Of a DNA stretch of 64,000 nt, positions 435 through 64,000 are shown piece by piece (within the stretch, counting starts at the first letter, position 1; the number at the start of each line of letters is the position of its first letter). Made by a program: the position numbers and the translations under genes. The DNA lies in the NCBI GenBank assembly GCA_958009085.1, contig OY253670.1, positions 1,240,001-1,304,000 on the forward strand, written 5' to 3'. The notes under the pieces were generated by a model. That model saw only the letters and a program-made list of their open reading frames with translations, had not been told where the DNA came from and ran no database searches. Source of the DNA: Protoeuglena noctilucae (taxonomy: Eukaryota).

Positions 435-3400
435 ATGGCGCCCGAGGTTGACACGACCAGGCTCGCGCCGGAGCCCAGAGCCGGGTCCGCGCTCCCGGCC
501 GAGCCTCCCAAGGGAGCGGAGGAATGCAACGTGTGCGTGGCTGTCCACGTGCGGCCTCTCATCCACGAGGAGATTATTCAGGAATGCAAGGAGACGATAT
601 CGGTCACCCCGAACTCCCCTCAGGTGCGAATAATTGCGCCCGCTTTCGGACCCCTGGACCCCCACGCATTTTGAAAGCCACGGCTCGACACCCCGCCCAT
701 CGCTTTCCAAGCCCGATCCTGTCGCTCGAGTGTACGGTTTCCTGTTCATCGCCCCGCTTCGTCCCCTTGGCGCCCCACCCGGCGCTGAGGGGCGGCCCAG
801 GTCAGGACGTTGTCGTGGGCCGGACCCGCCGCGCCCATCCGCGCTTCTCGTCCCCCCGCAGGTCACGCTGTCGTCACTTCATCAGTTCACCTTTGACTAC
901 GTGTACGGCGGGGACCACGGCCGGCCACCTTCGGAGCTCTACGGGCAATGCGTGAAGCCGCTCGTCGAGGGACTCTTCCGCGGCTATAACGCCACTGTGC
1001 TGGCCTACGGGTACGGGGCGGTGCATAAAAAATGATGTGCTTGCATGTGCTGTACTGCAAAGGAAGCCGCGTTGTCCTCCACCCTGCCAAAGCAACCCTG
1101 GGATGCCACCCTGCCCGTCTTTCGCCCTGGGCGCAGCCAGACGGGATCCGGAAAGACTTACACGATGGGCAGCGCCTTCACTCCTGGCGGCCCCAGGTGC
1201 GGCGTCATCCCCGAGGCCATGACGACGCTCTTTGAGATTTGCCGGTACGTCCCTCCAGCAACAAGACGCAGCAACAGACACACCCCTTACCGACCCGCTC
1301 GCTCACGCTCACGTGCGTAAACCATGCGCCCTGGCCCCTGCACACCCGCATGCACCCATCGCCCCTGACCCTCGCCCTTAGCGCCGCACCTACCCCCGCC
1401 ACTCCTTACCCCCTCTGCCCCACCTTTGCAGCCGCGAGTCGGACATGTATGACTTTTCCATCAGCGCATCGTTCGTGGAGATCTATCGGGAGGACATCCG
1501 GGACCTGCTGGCCCCCGCGGCCCCCCCCGTGAGCGTGCGGGAGCTGCCCGGGGGTGGCGTGTGCCTGGCTGGGGCCACCGAGCAGCCCGTGGGCAGCATG
1601 GAGGACATGGCGCAGCTCATCGAACGGGGCACGCTGTGCCGCGCCACGTCGGCGACGGGCATGAACAAACGCTCCTCGCGGTCCCACGCCATCTTCACCA
1701 TCTCGCTGGAGAAGCGCCGCAGGGACACAAGCGGGCCGTCACCCTCGGGGCCCGCCGCGTCCGACGACAGCGGTGGCGCGGGCCTGGGCCACGCGGTCGA
1801 GTCCCCCCGGGATGCAACCGCGGCGGAGGACGAGGTGGGAGAGGCCGACTACGTGTGCGCCAAGGTGAGCTTGCGGGGGGCGAGGGAAGAGGGATGCGGG
1901 ACTTGGCTCACGGCTCCTGGGTCCTCGCTCTGTTGTTTCCCACTTCACCTTAGCACCGCTACCCGCCGCGTCACCCCATCGCCCACCCCGTCACCCCACC
2001 ACCCACCCCGCCACCCCACCACCCTCCCCTTCGCCCCACCACCCGCCCCTGCTCGTCTGCCCAGATGCACCTGGTGGACCTGGCGGGTTCCGAGCGCGCC
2101 AAGCGCACCAAGGCGGAGGGCGTGCGCCTGAAGGAGGGCATCAAGATCAACCAGGGCCTCTTCGCCCTGGGCAAGGTCATCAGCGCGCTGTGCGACGACA
2201 CCCGGCGGGGCGCGCACGTTCCCTACCGCGAGTCGCGGCTCACGCGGCTCCTCCAGGACAGCCTCGGGGGCAACTCCCGCACCGTCATGCTCGCATGCGT
2301 GTCCCCCGCTGACGTCAACTTCGAGGAGACCCTCAGCACCCTCAAGTACGCCGACCGGGCGCGCATGATCCGCAACAAGCCCACCGTCAACCGCGACCCC
2401 ATGGCAGCCGAGGTGTCCTCCCTCAGGCGAGACGGGGACGCAGGGCGCGGCGGGCCGGGCCGTGGCGTGGCTGGGGATGCTCCCACGGTGGGTGCGCTGC
2501 GGCTGGGCTGTTGTCGAAAAGGTGCTGTGACGCTTTGCCATCTCGCAGGCAGCAGCTGGCGCTGGCCAAGGCGGAGCTGGCGGCCGCGCGCGCCGCGCTG
2601 TGCGGGGCGGCCCCCGCCAGCGTGGCGTCCCTGCGGGCGGGCGGTGGCGACGCGGCGTGGGAGGCGGCCGTGACGGAACTCGAGGCCAGGGCCCAGCGGG
2701 CGGAGGCGGAGGTGAGGGGCGGCGGACATGGATATAGTCACAGAGACTGGCGGTGCGCATGCCTGTCAGGGGAGCGGCCACCTGCCTACCCCTACAGCCT
2801 TGCCACCCCCGCGACCCGACCCTTCCGTCGCGCCCCACCGCAGGTCTCTCGCCTGCAGGCGGAGCTGCGCACGGCCACGTCGCGGCTGGTGGAGGCGCAG
2901 GCGCAGCGGGACGCCTGGGAGGGTCGCTGCCGGGACTTGCTAGACAAGGCGCGGGAGCGCGGGTGGGACGCCAGGGCGGACCTGCAGCTCGCGGGGGAGG
3001 AGCCCAGCAAGCACGGGGCGGAGGTGTACCTCGGCCGCATCGCCGAGCTCGAGGGGGAGTGCGCCAGGCTCAAGGTGGGGCCAGGGCACGGGCATGGGGG
3101 AGCGCCGGTGCAGATGGGGGGGTGCCGGGACCGCGGGGGGGGTGCCGGGACCGCGTGGGGGGTACCTGTGGCTGACACTCGCTGCACAGGAGCCGTGCAA
3201 GCGCGGTGGTCCTGCCGAGCAATGTCACCGCCCGTCACGTGCGCCCCGCCCCGCCCCGCCACCTCCCATCTCTAACCGCAAGCTTCCTCCACCCCCGCCC
3301 CCCCAGAACGAGGCCGCCGTCACCGAGGCCTTCCTGTCGGCCCGCCGCATGTCCATCGACCTGGCCCGCGTGCCCGAGGAGCCTCTGCTCGAGGCGGCCC

Positions 3401-6400
3401 AGGCGGCGGAGGAGGACGGGGTGGGGGCCGCGATGGGCGACGAGGTGGAGAGCGCGGTCGAGGAGCAGGTCTTCCTGGCGGAGCAGTCCAGGTGGGCGTT
3501 CATGTGAATTGGCAGTTCTAGCAATACTGCGTTAGTAGTACTCAAGAAGTGGTAGTATCGGTCGCAGTGGTGGATGAACTGGGGCAGTGGGGTGGGTGGT
3601 GGTGTAGTGGTTGGTGGTCTACGGCCACCCGATGCATGCCGCCTGCAACTGAAAGGTCTTTTGTATCTCCTTCGTGTCTCGCAGGCTGGGGATGTGCATG
3701 GAGGACTTGAACCGGCAGCTGCGGGCCAAGGAGGAGCAGGTCCGCCAGATGAGTCAGGTGTCGGTGGTCAAGGCGGTGTACGAGAAGAAACTGGCCGAGG
3801 TGAGAGAGGAGTGGGGATGATGAGGGTGATGAGAGGAGAGGAGTGAAGGGATGAGAGGGGCTGGCAGAGGTGAGAGAGGGGTGGGGGTGATGAGAGGAGA
3901 GGAATGGGGTGATAGTGAGAAGCTGGCTGACACTGCGATTGGGGTTGCTGGCTCAGTGCGTGGGTGGTGACTGTAGCTGTGGCTGTGGCTGCGATGTCAG
4001 GAGAATGGAGTAAGTCATACCGTTCCACGCATCTCTCGCCCCCGCAGCTGGAGGACGAGCGTGGGCAGCTGGAGGACGAGCGGTCGCGGCTGAGCCAGGC
4101 GATGCGGGACCTGAAGAAGACGGGGGCGGTGAACGCGACAGAGAGAGAGGCCAAGCACAGGTGCGGGGGGGGGGGGGGAGGGGGGGGGGTTACTGCGGGG
4201 GGGAAAGGGCCTAATGCATTGCGGCTGTGGCTGTGTTGTATCTGAAACAAGCACAGAGGCGCACACCTTCCTGTGATGGGCGTCCGCACCCGCCCTATGC
4301 GAGCGTGGCGACCGTGACGCCGGCGCTCCTCGCCTCGCAGGCAGCGCTTGGCTGAACTGGAGGGGCGCCTGCGGGAGCTGGAGAGGGAGCGCGCGCGGCT
4401 CCGGGACCTGGAGCGGACCAAGGCACGCGCCGAGGAGGCGTGCAAGCGACTGGAGGAGGAGATCCGAGGGCTGAAGCAGCACAAGTGAGTGGGACAGTCC
4501 AGGGGTGAAGCGGCACTAGTGAGTGGGACAGTCGAGGGGGCGTTGGTGCAGCTGGTTTGAAACGTGGCATGTGGCACGTGGCACGCAGGGTGCAGCTGTC
4601 GCGTCAGATGGAGGCGGCTGCGAAGGAGTTCCAGGAGTTCAAGCGGACGAAGGAGAAGGAGATGATGCAGCTGAGGTGAGAGAGAGTGCAAACGGAACGA
4701 GATGAGGGGGGAGCGACGCGCCCCCTGGTTGTGTAGAGGGCCAGTTTGTTGGGCGCGGGCACGTGGCGACGGAGTGCGACCCCGCCTTGCGCCCTTCCTG
4801 GTTGTCGCAGGCGCGCGGGGCAGCGTGGCCAGCTGCAGGTGGAGCGCATGCGGGCGCTCCATGAGAAGCAACAGCAGGTTCTGCGGCGGAAGACGGAGGT
4901 GAGGGGCGCGCTTCTTACTCCCTATCGCACCGGGGGTGTTAAGCCACCACACATACAGCAGCACTGCAGTGCCACCACCTGTGGGTGCCATGGACCCCAC
5001 ATGACTTGCCAGGGATTCTATAAGACAATTTAAGGACCCCACATGACGTGAGCCACCCCGTGCCTGGTACCCAGGAGGCCGACGCGGCCCGGCGTCGCCT
5101 CAAGGAGCTCACGATGCGCCAGGCGGCGGTACAGGCCTCCCGGCCCCAGAGCGCCAGCAGCAAGGCGTCCGACGCGCCCGAGTGCCAACCCCACGGCATG
5201 GCCCCGCTGCTCAGGTGACGCTCGCAGTTAGATGCGGGTGCGGCAGGGCTGTTCGCAGGGCTGTTCACAGGACTGCTGGGTGATGAGGGTCCGTGCCATG
5301 AGATGACATGGCAACGGGGCTCTGTGGCGTGCAGGGACGAGCGCAGCCGGGAGGAGTGGGTGGAGGGCGAGATGGCGGTGGTGCTGCGGGGGCGGGAGAT
5401 CGAGAGGGTGCTGAGCGGGGAGACGGCGCAAAGGGCGGCCCTGGCCCAGGCCCTCCAGGCCAAGCGGCAGGCGAGACAGCAGCACAGCTGCACTAACACG
5501 AGGGTTCAGGCGGTCGTGAGACTGACCCCGTCCAGCTCAGCCACAGCGGTACCTGGGGCAGCTGTAAGTCTGATCTCAGCCGTTCCTGACTCTTTCACAG
5601 GAGCTGCGGCAGCTGGGGCAGTCCCCGGAGGCAGAGGCGGTGCGTGGCGCAGTGGCGTCGATGGAGGCCCGCATCGCCCAGCACACGGCCGACATCCGGG
5701 ACCTGCAGGAGCAGCTGGGACAGGCGAGATGGGGCGCAATGCCGCCCAGTGACTGGCATCACCACGCTCCTTACCCCACACCCCACGAATCGCGATGTGG
5801 CATGCCGTGTGCCCGCTACCCCACCCTCACCCCCTCCCTGCCCAACCTTGCTTGTGCCCGTCTGTTCCCAGGCCCGCGTGGAGCGTGGTGATGAGAAGAG
5901 CGTGGCCGCTTCGGACGTGCGCCGGTGGTCGGGCATCCGCAACACGATCGAGGGCCGCACGATGCTGCGGACGCTCTTCCGCGTGGCGGTGCGGGAGAGG
6001 GAGGCGAGGGCGGAGACGGAGGAGGCGTTAGTCGAGGTGAGGGAGCGAGGCGGGGGTGGGGAGACTGGTGGGGGCAGTCGTGGTGGTGAGGGATTGGTAA
6101 CGTGGTGCTTGGGTAACCAAGGTGGTGATGGTGCTAAGGACTCTCCTCTGGTGGGGTGGTGACATCTATCTTCGACCCTTGGCTGTTATACATTAATACG
6201 TGTCTGTGCCCACGCACGTGCAGGCTAAGGAGAGGGCCGAGCTGCTGACAATCGAGGTGGTGGCGCTGAAGAGGGAGCTGGCCGAGGCGCTGAGGCAGAA
6301 GGCGGCCGCGGAGGTGACGACCCGCGAAGCCGCATGGATTGCCCAGCTTTCCATCGGCACCTGCACCCACACGCTTCCGTGCCCACCTGTACCCGCACGC

Positions 6401-55818: not shown

Positions 55819-58272
55819 TCAGATCGCCATGGTCAGCGCCGCCCGCCCCACTGCCTCCCTGAGCTGCGCCAGCCCCGAGGGCGAGTGGACGTCCACAGCC
55901 TCTCCATCTGCCGCGCAAATGATAACCACCCCACGAGATCCCTCAGCCCCTCGCCAGCTCTCCGCCGCTCCGCCGTCGCCTTCCTGACCACCGCGCATCT
56001 CCCACACATCCAGGTCCCGCTCCCATGCCCCCACACCCTCCTCAATTCCACTAACCGGCCCTCTTATCTCTCCCTCTCCTCCTTGCAGAGTCCCCCTGTC
56101 CCTCTCCTCGTCACCCACCGCAGCCCTGCCAGCGACACCCAACTTCGCATGTCCTCCTAACGCCTCCCCTTCCCTGTCACCCGCGACTTGCGCACCCACC
56201 CCGGCCGCCATCCCAGTCAGGTCGGGCACGCGACCTGACAGAGAGAAGGGGTCCGGGAGACATCCCACGCTGCACGGCAGCCACGACTCGGCACGCCGGA
56301 ACTTGCGCCGCGACCCGCCAGGCCCCTCTGCCTCCCCGACAGCCCCGCGCTTCCCAGCCGCGGCCCTCAGCTGCTCCACGGCGGCTCTGGCCCCGCCCAG
56401 CGCTCCCTCCAGCGCCGCAAGACGCTCGGCCTCCGCGCTGGCCCGGGGCCTCGGCTGGGATGCGGCACGAGCCGCCTGTCCCGCCATGGCCAGCAGCCGC
56501 GCTAGGGTCGGACCGGTCCCCCTGGCCCCGCTCCCTCGCCCGGTCAGGTGCCCCGCGATCGCCTGCACCAGCTGCGCCAGGGCCTCCTCCGCCTCCTCGC
56601 GACTGGCGCCGTCCATGGCCGCCTCGCCGGCACGGGAAGCGTGTGACGAAGGCTCACGCGCCGTCGCCATGCACTCCACCAGGACGGCCTCCAGTCGAGA
56701 CTCCACCTCCTGCGTTTGAAGGAAGAGGTGTGAAGATAGTACTGTGAAAGCACCCTCGTCTACTTCACCAGTTGTCCCACAGGGTTGCGCAGGATCCCAG
56801 CTGGCCATCTCGCGCCTCACCGCGGCAGACACGCCTCCCGCACCGTCGCTCCCCGCCGCGAGCATCTCCAGCCCCACTTGCCCCCACTCCACCAGCTCCC
56901 AACACGCGCCGCCGCCCTCCTGCCCGTCCGCCTCGCCATCGGCCCCGCACGTCGCACCCCGGACCCCCGCGCACGCCAGCCGGGAGGCGCGGCACACGAG
57001 GAGGAGCGGGAGGTGAGGGAACACCCTGGCAAGCGCGGTGACCGTCGCCCGCCACGCCTCCCTCTCGACCCCGCCCCCCCGGGGCGGCCGCAACGCGCCC
57101 CCGCCCACCAGCGCCGGGGCCAGCTCCGCCTCCGCCGCGTGCGCGGCCACGAGGGACCGCAGCGTCCCCATCGCCGCCTCCCGCCGCCGCGCCCGCTCCT
57201 TTTTGGACGACCCGGGCGTCGCTGCCGAGGGCCCCGCGTGGGGCGTGGCGTCCGGGTCGCCCTCCTCCTCCGTCTCAGAGCCTGCAGGTGGCGGTGTAGG
57301 AATATGAGCTTTACCAAAGTCAGCCGTGGGGTCTGCGGAGCGTGTCAGCTGTTCGCCCGGCTGCAGAGCGCACCGAGGGTCTCCAGAACAGGCGTGGTCG
57401 GGGCCTGCCGGGCGCGTGCGAGTCCCTCCACGCGCTCCGCGTGGTACGCCGCGATGGCCGCTCGCACGCGCTCCCGGCTCTTGCGGAGGTACGACTCCTG
57501 CAGCTCCCAGTAACTCTCCCGCAGCCACGCCAGCGCCTGGCGGGACGCCAGCCTGCGTGCGCCGGAAAAGGCGCAGGGTGAGTGCCCTCCATCGATGCCA
57601 TGCATAAGCAAAAGCTGGGGACTGCCAGGAGCGCTCGCCTGAGGACGGGCAGGGCCGGCAGCTGCTGGTGCGTGGCCGCATGGCGAATCTCCACGAGAAG
57701 CCTCGGCAGCCCCGCCTTCTGCGCGAGCGAGTCGACGGCTGCAGCGACCTTGCCCGACTGCTGCGAGTCCGAGATGCCGTTGACGAGCCTGCGCAGTGGA
57801 ACGGACGACAGGGCTGCGGCATCAACACTCGGCACGCAGCGTCGCAGCCCGGGCCCCGAGCGCAGCGCCCCAGCCGGTACCTGATGAGCGCCATGGAGTA
57901 CTGCATGCGCAGGAGCGTGTCTGAGACCCCAGCGTCGGCGGGGGCCCTCCCCGCGTCCAGCAAATGAGCCTCCGTGAGGGCCGCCGTGGCGTCCGCCGCT
58001 AGCGGCACGCGGCCGCGGACGCGCCAGCATTCGACGAGCCCCACGCCTGCACGATTATCGTCCGCGTCGTCTGAGAAGAGCAGCCGCCGGCATCGCCGCC
58101 ACTGCGCGCGGGGCGGGAGTCCGACGTGGAGGGCGCGGGCAGCGAGGCCCGCCGCCGCGCATGGCGTTAAGAAAGCGCAGTGCATCACAACATCGGCGTT
58201 GATTTGGTTCTAGCGAGGCTATCCTCCACGCACCTCCTCCCAGGAGAGCCACGGGACAACGCGGCCCACCAT
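55819..58272 (-). CDS. LAS1: Las1-like pre-rRNA processing HEPN nuclease
   Basis: Spliced MVGRVVPWLSWEE|W, WRVRGRVPLAADATA, LRMQYSMALIR.VNG, GLPRLLVEIRHAATHQQLP (HEPN RxxxxH), ALAWLRESYW. Confidence 0.9.
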
Positions 58273-58536: not shown

Positions 58537-59171
58537 ATGAATCGCCCGCTGGCCGCCTTTGCGGGTCGCACCACTCCGGTCCTTTCCCCCCGCGGCTGCC
58601 ATCTTTGCCGCGTGCGCCTGACGCCATGGGACGATGAACCCAGTGGGTTCCAACGCGAGGAGCAAAGGGTCCGTCACACGCTGCGCTTCTGGAACTGCAA
58701 CCTCCGAAGGCAGGGGCCAGCAATCGACCGTCTCCCTCTCTTCGCTCCGCGTCTGCAGGAGCCGGTGCTTGTCGCCACGCAGAAGGGTGTGCCGGACGTT
58801 CGTCGGAGGGAGCAGTCGCAGCAGCGTCAGCGGCCCCCTTGCCAGCAGTGCGCCGGGACGGGCCGGGTCGTGTGCTCGCGATGCGATGGATACCAGCGCG
58901 TCAACTACATCGGGGTGGCGATGCTGCCGGAGGGCGTGTGGCCGCAGTGGTGCCCGCGATGCTTTGCCAGGTACCCTGCTGCTGCGTGTCCTGCCCCTGA
59001 GACTGCTTTCTCCCGCACTGGGTGCCAGTCATCAGAGAACGCGCTGGCCATCGCAGGGGGACGGAATGGTGCGCGGCGTGTCAAGGGACGGGGGAGCACA
59101 GGGACCCTATAGGGTTCTTGACGGCGGAGGAGCCCCCGCCCCGAGAGAAGCCCGCCAACCGGCCCTGGTGA
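58537..59171 (+). CDS. DnaJ-type cysteine-rich zinc-finger protein, probably plastid-targeted
   Basis: CQQCAGTG, CSRCDGYQ, MLPEGVWPQWCPRC, and after the intron WCAACQGTGEHRDPIGF. Confidence 0.78.
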
Positions 59172-59375
59172 CGGGACGGCGCTGGCTCTGGGTCCGGCAC
59201 CCAGGGCCCGCCCAGACCCCCAGAACGGCTCTAGCGCCAGGCTGAATGGCACTGGACATCGTTTGACAAAGGGTGTTGCTGGCGAGGGCAACCCCAGTTT
59301 GCTGTTTCTTCGGCGTCGACGCCCCTTCCCTTGCGCCACTCACGTCTTCAAGTTCTCCTGACTATCAAGTGCTCT

Positions 59376-59961
59376 GCGCCGACCGCCGGTGCCGCGAATC
59401 GCTCGCGGCTGAGAATATACGGCCTGAACCTGACCGGTGCGTCCCCCGAGAGACTGCGCCGGCGCGTGTTTGACAGTCGACCGCGGCGCCGACTCCCATC
59501 GGGCGCCGCAGGCCCGGCGCGGGGAGCCGTCACCCGGCCACACTCAACCGACTTTTTGCGCGCTCGTCGGCACTCTTTAGGCTTGCGAGTCCCATCTGCG
59601 CGTTCTTGATTGCGCGATTCGAGCCCTACTTCGCCCGTGGGCCCGCATTACGGTCCGTCGAGTTGGTTGGGCGCAGCCGTCACCCTTCGAACGGCCTCGC
59701 CCCGCCTCGCCCCGCCGCCCCTGCGGCACAGCCAGCTCTCTGTGTGCTTTTGGTGATCCCAAGAATGTGTATTTGGCCGCGTGGGCCCCTTCCGGCGAAC
59801 CTGGGGCCATGAGTCGGTTGTGTGTTAGCCTGCGGTCGCCGGGACCCCGCGACGGGCAAGTCGCGTTCCCGTCACTTTCGAGGCGTGCACTGCGGGGGGT
59901 GTGACGCCCGGCTCCCCTCGGATGGCTCGCAGCGTTAATACGCGCGTAGGGAGGTCGGTGC
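59376..59961 (+). ncRNA. TPP riboswitch aptamer interrupted by a 496-nt intron (59437-59932) in the 5' leader of the SSS transporter
   Basis: 5' half: P1 GCGCCGACC, P2 GCCG/CGGC, P3 GCCGCGA/UCGCGGC, UGAGAA, GAACCUGA. 3' half: CGU-UAAU-ACGCG, CGUAGGGA, GGUCGGUGC (pairs with P1). The insert begins GTGCGT and ends CTCGCAG. Confidence 0.88.
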
Positions 59962-60159
59962 AAGGGCTCCAGGCGTCCCAGACACCCAACAGGAACCGCC
60001 GTCTCGAGCGTGATACGTCACAAAGTGAGGCTATCTCCGGGGACCGGAATGCGGCTTCAGGACGCCCGCACCGCCGTGCTGGTGGACGACGCTGCGGGGA
60101 TGCTCTCATGGCGTTGAGCGCGGATCTGGAGCCCCCTCCGCCCACCGCGTGGCTGCAGG

Positions 60160-62672
60160 ATGGCGTACCTTACTCCCAACGAAGGCATGGCCGCGGCCTA
60201 CGCGACCCTGGCCTTCTTCTTCGTCGTGGCCACGGGGGTCGTGTCCCTGCCCCAGTTCCGCCACTTTTTGAGCTCCTTCGACCTCCTCCTGGTGACCGTC
60301 GCAGCGGCTCTGCGTGAAAACACATCCTCGCGCGCATCCGTCGCGGCGTCATCCCTCCCGCCCGTCGCGCCGCGCGCAGACGGCCCGCAAGTCGATGGGT
60401 TGGATCCGGCTGGGCTTCTCCTTCTTCGCCGGCGCCCTGGGGGCGTGGACGGTGTACAGCGTGCCTCAGGTCGGCGCCGACGTGGGCCCCTGGGGCATCA
60501 TTATGTACGCCGTCGCCCTCTTCCTCCCCTACGTGATCCGTGAGTGCTGTGCAGGGTTGCAAAGCAACAAGCCAGCACGCGGCCACAAGACGAGCATCCG
60601 GCCTACTGCGTCCCGCCTCCGCAGTGCCGTGGCTGGCCCCCCGCGTGCTCAAGCAGGCGCCGGAGGGCTTCACGGCTCTCGACTACGCCAAGAAGCGTTA
60701 CGGCACCGTCATGTACTACTTCGGTCTCCTCGTGTCCCTTTTTTACCTGTTCATCTACATGGTGGCAGAGGTGAGCGACCGTGAGGGTGCCGCGGGCTGC
60801 TGCGCGGCGTGGTGTGGTGGCCACGGCTGACATCGATGGACCCCTTGGCTTGGCCCTGCAGTACACGTCCGCAGGTGGGGCCATCTCCGCGCTCACTAAC
60901 TACACGCTGACGGACTGGCACGTGACCATCGGCGTGGCGCTCGTGTCGGCCACCTACACCGCCTACGGTGGCATGGCCACCTCCATCCTCACTGACATGG
61001 TGCAGGGCTGCGTCATGTTCAGCCTCGGTGAGTCGGCGGCGCTGGCTTGCTCGTCATGTTCAGCCTCGGTGAGTCGGCGGCGCTGGCTTGCTCGCACACC
61101 GCAGCGGCGACATGGGCGACTGCGGCGCGTGGCTGTCCACTCCTCTCCGCCCGACACCGCCCCGCCTCTCTGTCGCGCAGTGGTCATCGGCTGCGCGGCC
61201 GGCTTCCACTTCTCCAAGACGTCCGCGTCGGCCATCCACCACGCGGCGCGGTGGTCGAGCGTGGGCTTCAGCCAGTGCAGCCCCCTCATCATCGGCGTCG
61301 TGGCCTCTGGCCTATTCGACATGACCATGTGGCAGCGCGCCTACGCCGCCAAGAGCTCCCGCGAGCTGTGGCAGGCCAGCCTCCTCGGCGCCCTCCTCAT
61401 CATGCCCGTCATGATCCTCTTCGGCATCTCGGGCATCATCGGCGCCGTCATGAACCCCGCCGACGCCGCCACGGTGAGCGCCGCCGAGGAGCGGCGTGTG
61501 GTGGCGGCTGTGTACCCCGAGCGGCCCGTGAAGATCTCGTCAAGGATAAAATGGAACACCCACCGACCATTCGGATGACGATGGACCTTGATAGGGCAGA
61601 ACCTGAGGCCAGGGGCACGCCACCATCCCAGGGCCTGACGTCATCCGGTGCGAGCTGTCAAACGTGGCGCGCCTTTGTCCCTACCCCCCGCAGGCCTCGT
61701 ACCTGACCTTCTTCGACCTGGTGGCCCCGCTGGGCAAGGGCTGGCAGGGCATCCTGATCGTCATGGTGGTGTCGCTGGTGTGCTCGACCGCCGACTCGAT
61801 CCAGAACGCCATGACGACCATGATCTCGCTCGAGCTGGAGAAGATCCCGTGGGAGCCCCTCCGCAAGCATCCCCTCTACGTCGCCCGCTTCACCGCGCTC
61901 CTCATCCAGGGCCCCGCCCTGGCTCTTGCCCTCAAGGACATGAACGTCCTCACCCTCTTCCTCATCGCCGACCTCGTCGCCGCCTGCATCGCCATCCCCG
62001 TCTTCGCCGGGCTCTGGGGTTTCATGACGCCGGTGAGCGCCCCGCAGGCCGTCTCCAGCAAGCAGTGTGCTTTTCATGGGGTAACGAAGTGCGAACGCTG
62101 TCCAAGGCTTTTGCCTGGTATTCACAACACTCACCCGCCACCCTCGTCGTGTCTTGCCCCCAGACGGGCGCCATGTGGGGCTGCATCGCCGGCTTTGCGT
62201 CGGTCGTGGTCGAGGGCTGGGCCATCCGCGGCAACTTCGCCCAGGGCTGGAGCCAGTTCATCCTCCCCGCGGGCTCGTACGCCAACGAGACGGTCGTGGC
62301 CTTCGTCATCGCCGTGGTCTTCTCGGGCTTCGTCGGGTTCGCCGTCTCGGCCGCCGAGCGCGTCTACACCCACGTCGTGCGCACGCGCCGCTACGTCGAG
62401 ATGGTCGCGCGCCACCACAAGGTGCGCCGCGGATGCGGCCCCGCGTGCCGGCGGACACTGCGCACTGCGCGCCGTCTGCGCCCTCGCCATGGCCGGGCAA
62501 TGGTGCATGCGCGTGTCACACATCCAATGCCGCGGGTCATGGTTTTTCTCTGCAGGTGGACCTGGATGCGATCGAGGAGGAGTTCGCGGGCCTCGTGGAC
62601 TACCGTAACAAGAGCATCTTCGACAACAACAAGGACGGCACGAGCGCCACCGACGACGGGGACCAGGTCTGA
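60160..62672 (+). CDS. Sodium:solute symporter (SSS) family transporter, probably for thiamine or a thiamine precursor
   Basis: Multi-TM exons: FSFFAGALGAW, DYAKKRYG, LFIYMVAEYT, YTAYGGMATSILTDMVQG, FDMTMWQRAYAAKS, CSTADSIQNA, LFLIADLVAA. Substrate inferred from the upstream TPP aptamer. Confidence 0.88.
61011..61094 (+). repeat. Perfect 41-bp tandem duplication covering an exon end and 5' splice site
   Basis: cgtcatgttcagcctcggtgagtcggcggcgctggcttgct occurs at 61011 and 61052. Confidence 0.95.
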
Positions 62673-62924
62673 CCCGAACCCGCATCGTCGGCCGGCAGCC
62701 GGCCGCCCACGTCGAGCGCCACGCAGGCGGCGCGGATGCTTCTCTTCAGCTTTCGTGCCTCTTGCTGGATGACATGCGTGCTGCGTGCTCGCGTGGGCCT
62801 CGCGCGCGGGCCACTCGCTCTTGAAGACGGGTGGCTGAGAAAGAGCAGCACGCATGCTTTCAAACCACGAGCGGGGCCCAGCACCTCTCCCAAAAATGCT
62901 CTGGCGCCCCTTGCTGTCGTTCCA

Positions 62925-64000
62925 TCACGCTGCCTTGGCGACCCTCACCACCTCGTCGACGTCTGCGTACCCAAGGATGCCCTTGTCCGTGTGGAGCCAA
63001 ACGCGTTCCGGTCCCCTCATCACCAGCGTGCCACCCCGCTGCAGCAGCAGCTCGTCGTCCCGCGGCCGCAGGACCTCCCAGTCACGCAGAATGTCCGTCA
63101 TGTTCAGCAGCCTGCGTGTCACAGGAAGGACTTGGCAAGCCTTCCAGACGCGACACGCCTCGACGGTTGAGTTACGACAAACCACATGCTGAGACCAGCC
63201 CTCGCTCGCTGTCCCCTGCGTCTCACCGGAGCGTGGCGAGCTCGAAGGGCCGCTGGTACCCCTTGCCGACAACGTCAAAGAACGGGGCCCAGGCGATCTG
63301 CCGCGGATCCTGGGGGCTGTAGTTGAACACCTGGCCCGCTTGCCGGTCACCCACGTATCCTCGCAGCACCTCGGGGAGCGTGCCGGGGGACCCGATGCCC
63401 GCACACATTGCCAGCAGGCGCATGTAGGCGTTGACGCCCCCCGCCTGCAGCCCCGGTGACAGGCCGAGTGCCCGGTGTGCGGCCCCCGAGGGGTCTGCCC
63501 AAAGGAACTCCTTGGGGAAGGACGTGAGGTCGCAGAAGCGACGCGCAGCTTCCAGGGACCCGATGCCGACGCAAACGACGCGCACCTGCGGCGGACGGGT
63601 CGGCGAGGCTCGCACGCATCCCACGCATGCCTGGGTGCCGTGCGTGGTGCGTGCTCAGCGACCAAGCCACGGCTGGGTCACCTTGGCGTCCGCGAGCTCG
63701 GTGATCTTGGACCGCAGACGCTGCGCGTACTCCCACGAGTCGAAGTCGGCGAAATGAGTGAGGAGGGCGAGTGTCACGACTTGGTTCGCGCCCCACAGCT
63801 CCGTGAGGTTCTCCTCCACGCCAGACGAGCAGTGGAAGACCCTGATGCCCTGAAGCTTCGAAAACTCGGTCGATACGGGAGCCGGCGGTGGAACCGGGGC
63901 GGAGATGGGCGCAGAGGCCGAGGACGAAGAGCTGAAGTCCTCGCCCCTTGGCGTCGCACGCGCGAGCCCGCAGCCGCGCGCAGGGCGATCTGCAGGGACG
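62925..64000 (-). CDS. AhpC/TSA-like (peroxiredoxin-like, cyanobacterial type) protein; 5' end probably outside the window
   Basis: THFADFDSWEYAQRL, VVCVGIGS..AARRFC..TSFP, MCAGIGSPGTLPEVLRGYVGD, GYQRPFELATLRLLNM, LQRGGT. Confidence 0.8.

Follow-up and report, generated by a model that had tools for sequence, protein, structure and literature searches.

In Protoeuglena noctilucae, the 5′ leader of a sodium:solute symporter gene carries a thiamine pyrophosphate (TPP) aptamer that is cut in two by an intron and becomes contiguous only when this intron is spliced out. The locus lies within a 64,000-nt stretch of DNA (GenBank assembly GCA_958009085.1, contig OY253670.1, positions 1,240,001 to 1,304,000 of the forward strand), referred to below as the window, whose G+C content is 64–74% throughout. 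A second intron follows in the same leader and ends one base before the start codon; it holds three upstream ATGs (uATGs), and public RNA data show it to be an ordinary, efficiently removed intron of the 5′ untranslated region (5′ UTR). An initial annotation had proposed this second intron, its upstream open reading frames (uORFs) and alternative donors inside the aptamer as the expression platform of a riboswitch. The anatomy is confirmed, while regulation through uORFs or alternative donors of the second intron is a weak proposition with some indications against it. Binding of TPP by the aptamer, and control of the gene through it, are putative, a prediction from motifs and fold. Tentatively, we place the action of TPP in the spliced leader, on the assembled aptamer.

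The leader, its aptamer and the symporter gene

The RNA evidence comes from contigs of four public runs placed on positions 59250–60750. Three runs are marine metatranscriptomes, two from one study (X1 and X4) and one from another (X5); the fourth (X9), which spans the interval unbroken, is DNA-like, probably DNA, and may be the source of the window. Runs X13–X16, of the same species label, contain next to none of the sequence words searched for, and this is not taken as a sign of low expression. Contigs of this kind show the dominant form of a transcript, not the absence of others, and they lose rare, minor or condition-specific isoforms. Four joints are seen, all with GT..AG ends and none of them in X9. 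Three are present in all three RNA runs: 59435->59932, which skips 496 nt (with the cut displaced by +1, the intron is 59437–59932), 60024->60159, which skips 134 nt (intron 60025–60158), and 60539->60625, which skips 85 nt. The fourth, 60290->60379 (88 nt), occurs in two of the three, the X5 contig ending at 60282. With mRNA contigs starting at 59357, 59359 and 59366, the locus is laid out as follows:

59357..59436, forward strand: leader exon 1, with the 5′ half of the aptamer; placed by RNA contig 5′ ends and the splice joint, a partial cmscan match and the minimum free energy (MFE) fold
59437..59932, forward strand: leader intron 1 (GTGCGT...CGCAG, 496 nt, three ATGs); joint in 3/3 RNA runs and 0/1 DNA-like run
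59933..60024, forward strand: leader exon 2, with the 3′ half of the aptamer (59933–59961) and an ATG-free linker (59962–60024)
59953..59961, forward strand: 3′ strand of helix P1 (predicted pairing), with GTs at 59954 and 59958, neither used as a donor in the three RNA runs
60025..60158, forward strand: leader intron 2 (aaa|GTGAGG...CTGCAG|g, 134 nt); joint in 3/3 RNA runs from two studies
60159..60291, forward strand: leader base G60159, start codon at 60160 and first coding exon (MAYLTPNEG...); exact mapping of protein P0002 from 60160
60380..62672, forward strand: remaining coding sequence (CDS) of the symporter, by exact spliced mapping of P0002, in exons 60380–60539, 60625–60770, 60862–61027, 61181–61473, 61694–62032, 62164–62421 and 62556–62669

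P0002 (536 aa), retrieved with exon 61694–62032 as the query and identical to the window across that exon, maps onto eight coding exons from ATG 60160 to 62669, with the stop at 62670–62672. It is a sodium:solute symporter of Pfam family PF00474 (64.7 bits against a cut-off of 22.8, E=9.2e-18, residues 45–422). All nine introns of the gene begin with GTG[A/C][G/C] and end with CAG, and the coding introns 60292–60379 and 60540–60624 are among those seen in the RNA contigs.

RNA is also found upstream of the mRNA ends. Contigs of lower depth (5 and 8.5, against 28–30 for the mRNA) cover 59250–59357/59334 and reach ~570 nt further upstream, forming a low-depth zone at ~58680–59357 between a Las1-like gene and the symporter leader. 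This RNA is either an unannotated transcript or the product of a minor upstream start, and the latter would add uATGs.

When the leader exons are joined in silico, the unconstrained MFE structure of the 114-nt product is the canonical P1–P5 architecture of TPP aptamers (−54.5 kcal/mol). Exon 1 supplies the 5′ strand of P1 (59376–59384), P2 (59385–59388/59420–59423, GCCG/CGGC), P3 (59391–59397/59403–59409, GCCGCGA/UCGCGGC), the CUGAGA motif (59409–59414) and, up to 59436, J2-4, P4 (from the 59429–59436 side) and the first two nucleotides of P5. Exon 2 supplies the rest of P5, loop L5 (UAAU), CGCGUAGGGA and the 3′ strand of P1, which pairs with the 5′ strand over 9 bp plus a 5-bp extension. P5 has 5 bp (CG|CGU/ACGCG), and intron 1 falls between the second and third nucleotides of its 5′ strand. 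The CUGAGA at the junction of P3 with the 3′ strand of P2, a motif termed universally conserved in the text available from McRose (2014; PMC4260697), stands with its P2/P3 arm in exon 1, and the P4/P5 arm with a UAAU-type L5 and CGUAGGGA, closed by P1, is present in the spliced RNA only. The dominant RNA lacks both leader introns, and the aptamer is therefore exonic and contiguous only after splicing, interrupted in the gene and intact in the message in all three RNA runs and in the fold.

Covariance-model scanning of genomic DNA recovers one half of this structure. At a relaxed threshold (E<=10), cmscan gives a partial match to RF00059 at 59385–59468 (17.3 bits, E=1.4), corresponding to model positions 11 to ~70; as far as the splice junction, across P2, P3, CUGAGA and the start of P4/P5, the posterior probability is high. 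At the Rfam gathering threshold (54.3 bits) there are 0 matches in the unspliced genomic window or in the three related loci described below (L001–L003), and in unspliced DNA neither the whole-window scan nor the scans of L001 and L002 give a TPP match at E<=10. The genomic DNA presumably scores below threshold because the intron interrupts the aptamer. The exact motif GYGTAGGGA occurs in the window only at 59944.

Related loci were sought in metagenome contigs, with P0002 aligned to three relatives as the query; the scan returned L001 (49% identity to P0002) and L002 and L003 (55%). L003 is part of L002, with one difference in ~2,000 nt, leaving two further lineages, whose introns are predicted from sequence alone. 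In L002, the 5′ half would end ...CUGAGAUCAUACCGCCUGAACCUGAACG|GUAAGA (4659/4660) and the 3′ half begin at CUGCAG|CGUUAAUCCGCGCGUAGGGAG (5334/5335); in L001, the boundaries would be ...CUGAGAAAACCGUUCGAACCUGACCG|GCGAGA (2858/2859) and CUCAG|UGGUAAUCCACGCGUAGGGAG (3279/3280). The L001 intron (2859–3279) would have GC..AG ends (ccg|GCGAGA...CTCAG|tg). From these boundaries we infer that the splitting intron occupies the same position in P5 in 3/3 lineages.

In-silico splicing of L001 gives an RNA whose unconstrained fold has the window's architecture (−34.0 kcal/mol), with P1 GAGAC/GUCUC, P2 ACGG/CCGU, P3 GCUGCGUC/GACGUGGC and P5 CG|UGG/CCACG. In L002, P3 (CUGC/GCAG) forms once P2, P4 and P5 are constrained, 4 kcal/mol above the free MFE, and neither free nor constrained folding of 4575–4660 and 5353–5363 gave a convincing P1. 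The 3′ flank of L002 carries a CACCC that can pair with a GGGUG overlapping the 5′ strand of P2, and such an anti-aptamer pairing might compete with the aptamer fold. In the window and L001 alike, P1, P2, P3 and P5 are paired although their sequences differ, and P2, P3 and P5 are paired in L002 as well under the imposed constraints. The 5′ strand of P2, for example, reads GCCG in the window (59385–59388), ACGG in L001 (2806–2809) and GCGG in L002 (4608–4611). Kept across the lineages are CUGAGA, GAACCUGA(C/A)CG, UAAU and CGCGUAGGGAG. Three-lineage alignments of intron 1, the exon 2 linker and intron 2 reveal conservation at the splice sites and in the aptamer only, with no further shared block.

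The lineages also differ downstream of the aptamer. L001 passes through a 62-nt ATG-free linker (13% G) directly to ATG 3368 and an uninterrupted open reading frame of 569 aa, identical to P0006, with neither a second leader intron nor a CDS intron. L002 has a 125-nt ATG-free exon and then a candidate second intron, caat|GTGAGC (5460)...ACGTAG|ATG (5736), containing two ATGs, and its N-terminus (MASYLTNGE...) aligns with MAYLTPNEG of the window. A second leader intron is found in 2/3 lineages, backed by RNA in the window and predicted in L002. Across the three lineages the leader exons hold 0 ATGs and the linkers are poor in G; in L001 and L002 the linkers are also weakly structured (−3.0 against −20.8+/−8.6 in L001; −10.3 against −31.6+/−9.0 in L002).

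A second aptamer in the 3′ UTR was considered and rejected, as CTGAGA at 62835 has no partner, cmscan of 62500–63500 is empty and GYGTAGGGA does not recur. At 62825–62880 the 3′ UTR contains GGUGGCUGAGA followed by a 6-bp hairpin and ACCAC, an arrangement like a P2/P3 arm, with no P4/P5 half nearby and no cmscan match; the likeness is probably due to chance. Pairs of 5′ and 3′ aptamers are described for one Micromonas (McRose 2014, PMC4260697, in part).

Elsewhere in the gene, the boundary between exon and intron 61028–61180 falls inside a perfect 41-nt tandem duplication (61011–61094, 2.0 copies, 100% match). The duplication creates a second identical donor 41 nt downstream, the use of which would shift the frame. 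A further catalogue protein of the same gene, P0001 (450 aa), starts at M50 (MGWIRLG...) and does not have ~37 residues within exon 61181–61473 (SQCS...LLIMPV), a gap due either to alternative splicing within the exon or to an artefact of the assembly. A blastn search for introner-like repeats, with introns 1–4 against the window, returned self matches and one 22-nt match only. In the ESM Atlas the symporter falls among generic SSF clusters, and a neighbouring cluster that is mostly fungal is the sole hint of relatedness to the Candida transporter DUR31. The upstream neighbour is the divergent Las1-like gene (55822–58209, minus strand), and no thiamine-pathway gene was found near the locus.

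The second leader intron and its upstream start codons

The elements that the initial annotation had placed ahead of the start codon are all in the sequence. The acceptor AG (60157–60158) is followed by G60159 and ATG 60160, and GTs lie at 59954 (gag|GTCGGT), 59958 (tcg|GTGCAA) and 60025 (aaa|GTGAGG), the first two within the 3′ strand of the 9-bp P1 (59953–59961). Of the three uATGs, those at 60049 and 60100 lie in a common frame, closed by TGA 60115–60117. The third, at 60108, is not in the frame of the CDS, and its reading frame runs to TGA 60315–60317 in unspliced DNA. The RNA bears out a second leader intron with the predicted acceptor, the joint 60024->60159 being found in 3/3 RNA runs. 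Its agreement with the proposed donors is partial. Position 60025 serves as the donor in all three runs, and 59954 and 59958 are used by no contig (0/3, in contigs that drop rare isoforms). A direct joint from 59437 to 60158, proposed as an unregulated shortcut that would remove half the aptamer, likewise appears in none of the three runs, in contigs from which rare forms may escape. No contig of these runs covers either leader intron, and zero depth is not taken here as evidence against retention. The three uATGs are intronic because 60025–60158 is the intron that is spliced out, and its retention would put all three before the start codon.

Could the TPP-bound aptamer change how intron 2 is handled, through retention or through a donor hidden or exposed by P1, with the uATGs then blocking translation and possibly inducing decay? 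We regard this as unlikely, although several features speak for it. The intron is real and begins 63 nt behind P1, and retention would add three uATGs, one of which overlaps the main start out of frame. The predicted second leader intron of L002/L003 also ends at the ATG, with 0 ATGs in the exons and two in the intron. In addition, the accessible text of PMC5997356 presents the characterised eukaryotic TPP switches as all acting via splicing, with uORFs in fungal THI5/NMT1. The donor in P1 at 59958 scores like the weakest real donor. On a crude matrix built from the nine real donors (leave-one-out range 3.5–10.5), 60025 scores 4.9, 59958 scores 3.7 and 59954 scores 0.9, which makes 59958 a conceivable weak site and 59954 a poor one.

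The products of these donors argue the other way. Splicing from 59954, 59958 or 60025 gives in each case a leader free of uATGs, and hiding a donor in P1 is for that reason not repressive by itself. The density of uATGs is also ordinary for introns of this gene, with 3 in 134 nt of intron 2 against 16 in 1,398 nt of the other eight introns, the last of which has 6 in 134 nt. About 1.5 ATGs are expected in intron 2 (Poisson P(>=3) ~0.2), so there is no enrichment. Neither retention nor the P1 donors are seen in the three RNA runs, a weak point given that these are contigs.

Pairing between the aptamer and the splice sites of intron 2 points in the same direction. With RNAduplex, the region of the 60025 donor binds either aptamer half more weakly than that of any other of the nine donors (−12.4/−10.6 kcal/mol, against −17.3 to −32.2 and −14.5 to −19.6 kcal/mol for the other eight). 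The region of the intron 2 acceptor, at −30.1 and −32.4, lies inside the range of the other eight. The RNA with intron 1 spliced and intron 2 retained already holds the aptamer in its MFE structure (−174.3); forcing the aptamer leaves both this MFE and the unpaired probabilities as they were (5′ splice site 0.45, 3′ splice site 0.33, AUG 0.37, in a crude model). The aptamer is thus not complementary to the regulated splice site by RNAduplex or forced folds, as it is in NMT1/THI4 switches, nor does it lie inside a regulated intron downstream of two donors that flank a uORF.

The comparison among lineages also counts against this model: L001 has no intron 2, and no conserved block is found in intron 2. 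An NMT1/THI4-like platform, which had been offered as the underlying logic, finds no support as a mechanism for the family, given an exonic aptamer, no aptamer–donor pairing and a relative without intron 2. With L001 lacking this intron and no coupling between aptamer and intron 2 detected, intron 2 is best read as a constitutive leader intron whose retention would be harmful by default.

Proposed action on the spliced leader

The mature leader joins 59357–59436 to 59933–60024 and G60159, and the main start is its first ATG. It consists of ~19 nt, the 90-nt aptamer, the 63-nt linker, G and AUG, and the aptamer starts ~10–19 nt into the RNA contigs. The linker is ATG-free and A-rich, with 25% G against 35% in the window. 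Folding the leader together with 90 nt of CDS leaves the aptamer as a domain of its own, and the thermodynamic models of the leader give no switch between alternative folds.

With a confidence that falls somewhat short of even, we favour action of TPP on the splice-assembled aptamer in this spliced 5′ UTR. TPP would lock the very stable P1–P5 fold near the cap, the locked structure would hinder 43S loading or scanning, and the mRNA would be destabilised secondarily. Removal of intron 2 would merely clear the three uATGs, and its retention would not be the designed output of the riboswitch. Since L001 keeps the split aptamer without intron 2, a mechanism shared by the family cannot depend on that intron, and action on the assembled aptamer appears to be the most economical mechanism for the whole family. 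The literature, as far as the cited texts were available, offers several precedents. TPP aptamers occur in the 5′ UTR of single-exon SSSP/SSSF genes (McRose 2014, PMC4260697), and 5′-UTR aptamers without splice sites are classed as ‘Type IV’ (Mukherjee 2018, PMC5882874), with translational control suggested for both (PMC4260697, PMC5882874). The intron-split SSSQ riboswitch of Guillardia is said to be one that ‘cannot operate before splicing occurs’ (McRose 2014, PMC4260697).

Several points weigh against action on the spliced leader. According to the accessible part of PMC9544697, no natural eukaryotic riboswitch has been shown to be translational, and all those characterised use splicing. 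TPP binding and a thiamine response at this locus are putative. Thermodynamic models and a nine-site matrix are crude, short regulatory pairings can escape them, and 59958 is still a candidate weak donor (score 3.7). Minor or condition-specific isoforms are invisible in contigs, and the transcription start is placed by contig ends only, with the lower-depth contigs extending upstream. The position of intron 2 directly before the AUG in 2/3 lineages could reflect function rather than common ancestry. Finally, the L001 and L002 introns come from sequence only, the L001 donor is GC, and P1 of L002 is not drawable.

The same anatomy suggests another point of control, in which TPP blocks the removal of intron 1. 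P1 (and P4/P5) would form across the intron in the pre-mRNA and draw both of its splice sites into helix P5, TPP would lock this state, and the retained intron would ruin the leader through its three uATGs and through failed export or decay. We consider this improbable, though the intron itself has much that would fit. Its position in P5 is identical in three lineages (49–55% protein identity), including the otherwise intronless L001 with its weak GC donor, and it contains 3, 4 and 9 ATGs across the three. The MFE structure of the unspliced RNA holds 14 of 21 intron-spanning aptamer pairs in the window and 11 of 18 in L001, mostly in P1. A precedent in the available text of PMC5997356 is Candida DUR31, of the SSS family, whose unspliced RNA is raised by thiamine. 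Forming the whole aptamer around the intron, by contrast, costs +12.7 kcal/mol in the window and +9.2 kcal/mol in L001, no conserved block is found inside intron 1, and no contig of the three RNA runs retains it, which is weak evidence. We know of no aptamer that binds its ligand with a 400–700-nt insert in a strand of P5, which we also count against it. Intron loss is biased towards the 3′ end of genes, and this predicts survival of the 5′-most intron without any function.

A further alternative is that the aptamer is conserved but does not switch, as in diatoms, the leader introns being constitutive and any thiamine response transcriptional. The diatom THIC and SSSP aptamers are conserved yet unresponsive to thiamine, and P2 here is of the GCGG-like type described for diatoms (PMC9544697, in part); the single isoform seen here would agree with this, within the limits of contigs. 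Against it, the helices covary and the ligand-contact motifs are invariant in three lineages, and the linker and leader are kept free of ATGs. In Micromonas, a different organism, mRNAs of riboswitch-bearing SSSP/SSSF genes rise >10-fold without thiamine (PMC4260697, in part). On balance a silent aptamer seems very unlikely, and we leave an equally slim chance to something else entirely.

Action on the spliced leader can be extended to a ligand pocket that the spliceosome builds. The P5 intron would silence the sensor in the nucleus, and the finished aptamer would form a cap-proximal, TPP-dependent block to ribosomes, or else the intron within the aptamer would itself be gated by TPP, with intron 2 as an accessory in either case. 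This picture is speculative and rather doubtful, though conceivable; if true, a cap-proximal aptamer block would make it the first natural riboswitch of eukaryotes to act on translation. As a separate observation, the site 24 nt 5′ of the exon 1/exon 2 junction is the pocket junction at CUGAGA (59409–59414). The exon-junction complex is usually deposited ~24 nt upstream of an exon junction, and on CUGAGA it could mask the pocket until removed.

The locus also bears on wider questions. How eukaryotic 5′-UTR TPP aptamers act where there is no splice choice (SSSP/SSSF, Type IV) has been a standing question since 2014, and this leader is a clean, RNA-verified test case. Its mature form is little more than the aptamer and a short unstructured linker, and its two introns are separable, which would allow nuclear splicing to be told apart from cytoplasmic translation or decay. 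The transporter family is tied to the uptake of thiamine or its precursors in marine plankton, with a bearing on vitamin B1 ecology. The fixed P5 intron position also provides a search rule for aptamers that genomic covariance-model scans miss, as they did here at the gathering threshold.

The locus beside known TPP riboswitches

Among published intron-split aptamers, a keyword literature search that was not exhaustive found only one sentence, on Guillardia theta SSSQ. New here are the RNA-verified anatomy of a leader with an intron-split aptamer and the finding that the adjacent uATG segment is a normally removed intron, not a demonstrable expression platform. To these we would add, from sequence comparison, a fixed P5 intron position shared by three diverged lineages, one of which has no other intron in the gene.

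The closest known case is thus G. theta SSSQ, in which the 5′-leader TPP aptamer of a PF00474 symporter is likewise cut by spliceosomal intron(s) and the spliced form is supported by RNA (PMC4260697). In the portion of that paper available to us, the aptamer is split by one or two introns, in one species and in one sentence (PMC4260697). Here, in contrast, the splitting intron keeps to a single site in P5 across the three lineages and another intron abuts the AUG, and the two genes are likened by the PF00474 family only.

Fungal Type I switches (Neurospora crassa THI5/NMT1 and THI4) share with this locus a 5′-leader position, an acceptor just before the main open reading frame and uATGs if the intron is retained (PMC5997356, PMC5882874). 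As described in the accessible parts of these sources, however, their aptamer is intronic, a uORF stands between two alternative donors upstream of it, and P4/P5 base-pairs with the second of these (PMC5997356, PMC5882874). In the symporter leader the exons carry the aptamer and the uATGs come after it; a single donor accounts for all the RNA seen, and a search for complementarity between aptamer and donor found none.

DUR31 of Candida, an SSS-family thiamin transporter for which thiamine favours the unspliced RNA, and N. crassa NCU01977 are set beside this locus by their description in the available text (PMC5997356). The nesting is reversed: in these fungal genes an intron encloses the aptamer (in NCU01977 within the CDS), and at this locus the aptamer encloses an intron. 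Chlamydomonas THI4 and THIC and plant THIC are examples of TPP sensing in thiamine-related genes of photosynthetic eukaryotes, with uORF or premature-stop logic in the alga. In the Chlamydomonas and plant switches, the AG in the P2 ‘AGGG’ is the alternative acceptor, while here P2 is GCCG and contains no splice site. More generally, P2 stems are GCGG-like in diatoms and AGGG in green algae and plants (PMC9544697 for both statements, in part). By their P2 strands, the locus and its relatives leave room for a source that may not be a green alga.

The mature message finds its likeness in the marine algal SSSP/SSSF aptamers (PMC4260697) and the fungal Type IV aptamers (PMC5882874), which, as far as these sources were available, likewise sit intact in the 5′ UTR once the mRNA is mature, with no remaining splice site to control. 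Their leaders are intron-free, whereas two introns must first be removed here and one in L001. After removal of its single intron, L001 reaches the same mature state as the SSSP/SSSF and Type IV aptamers.

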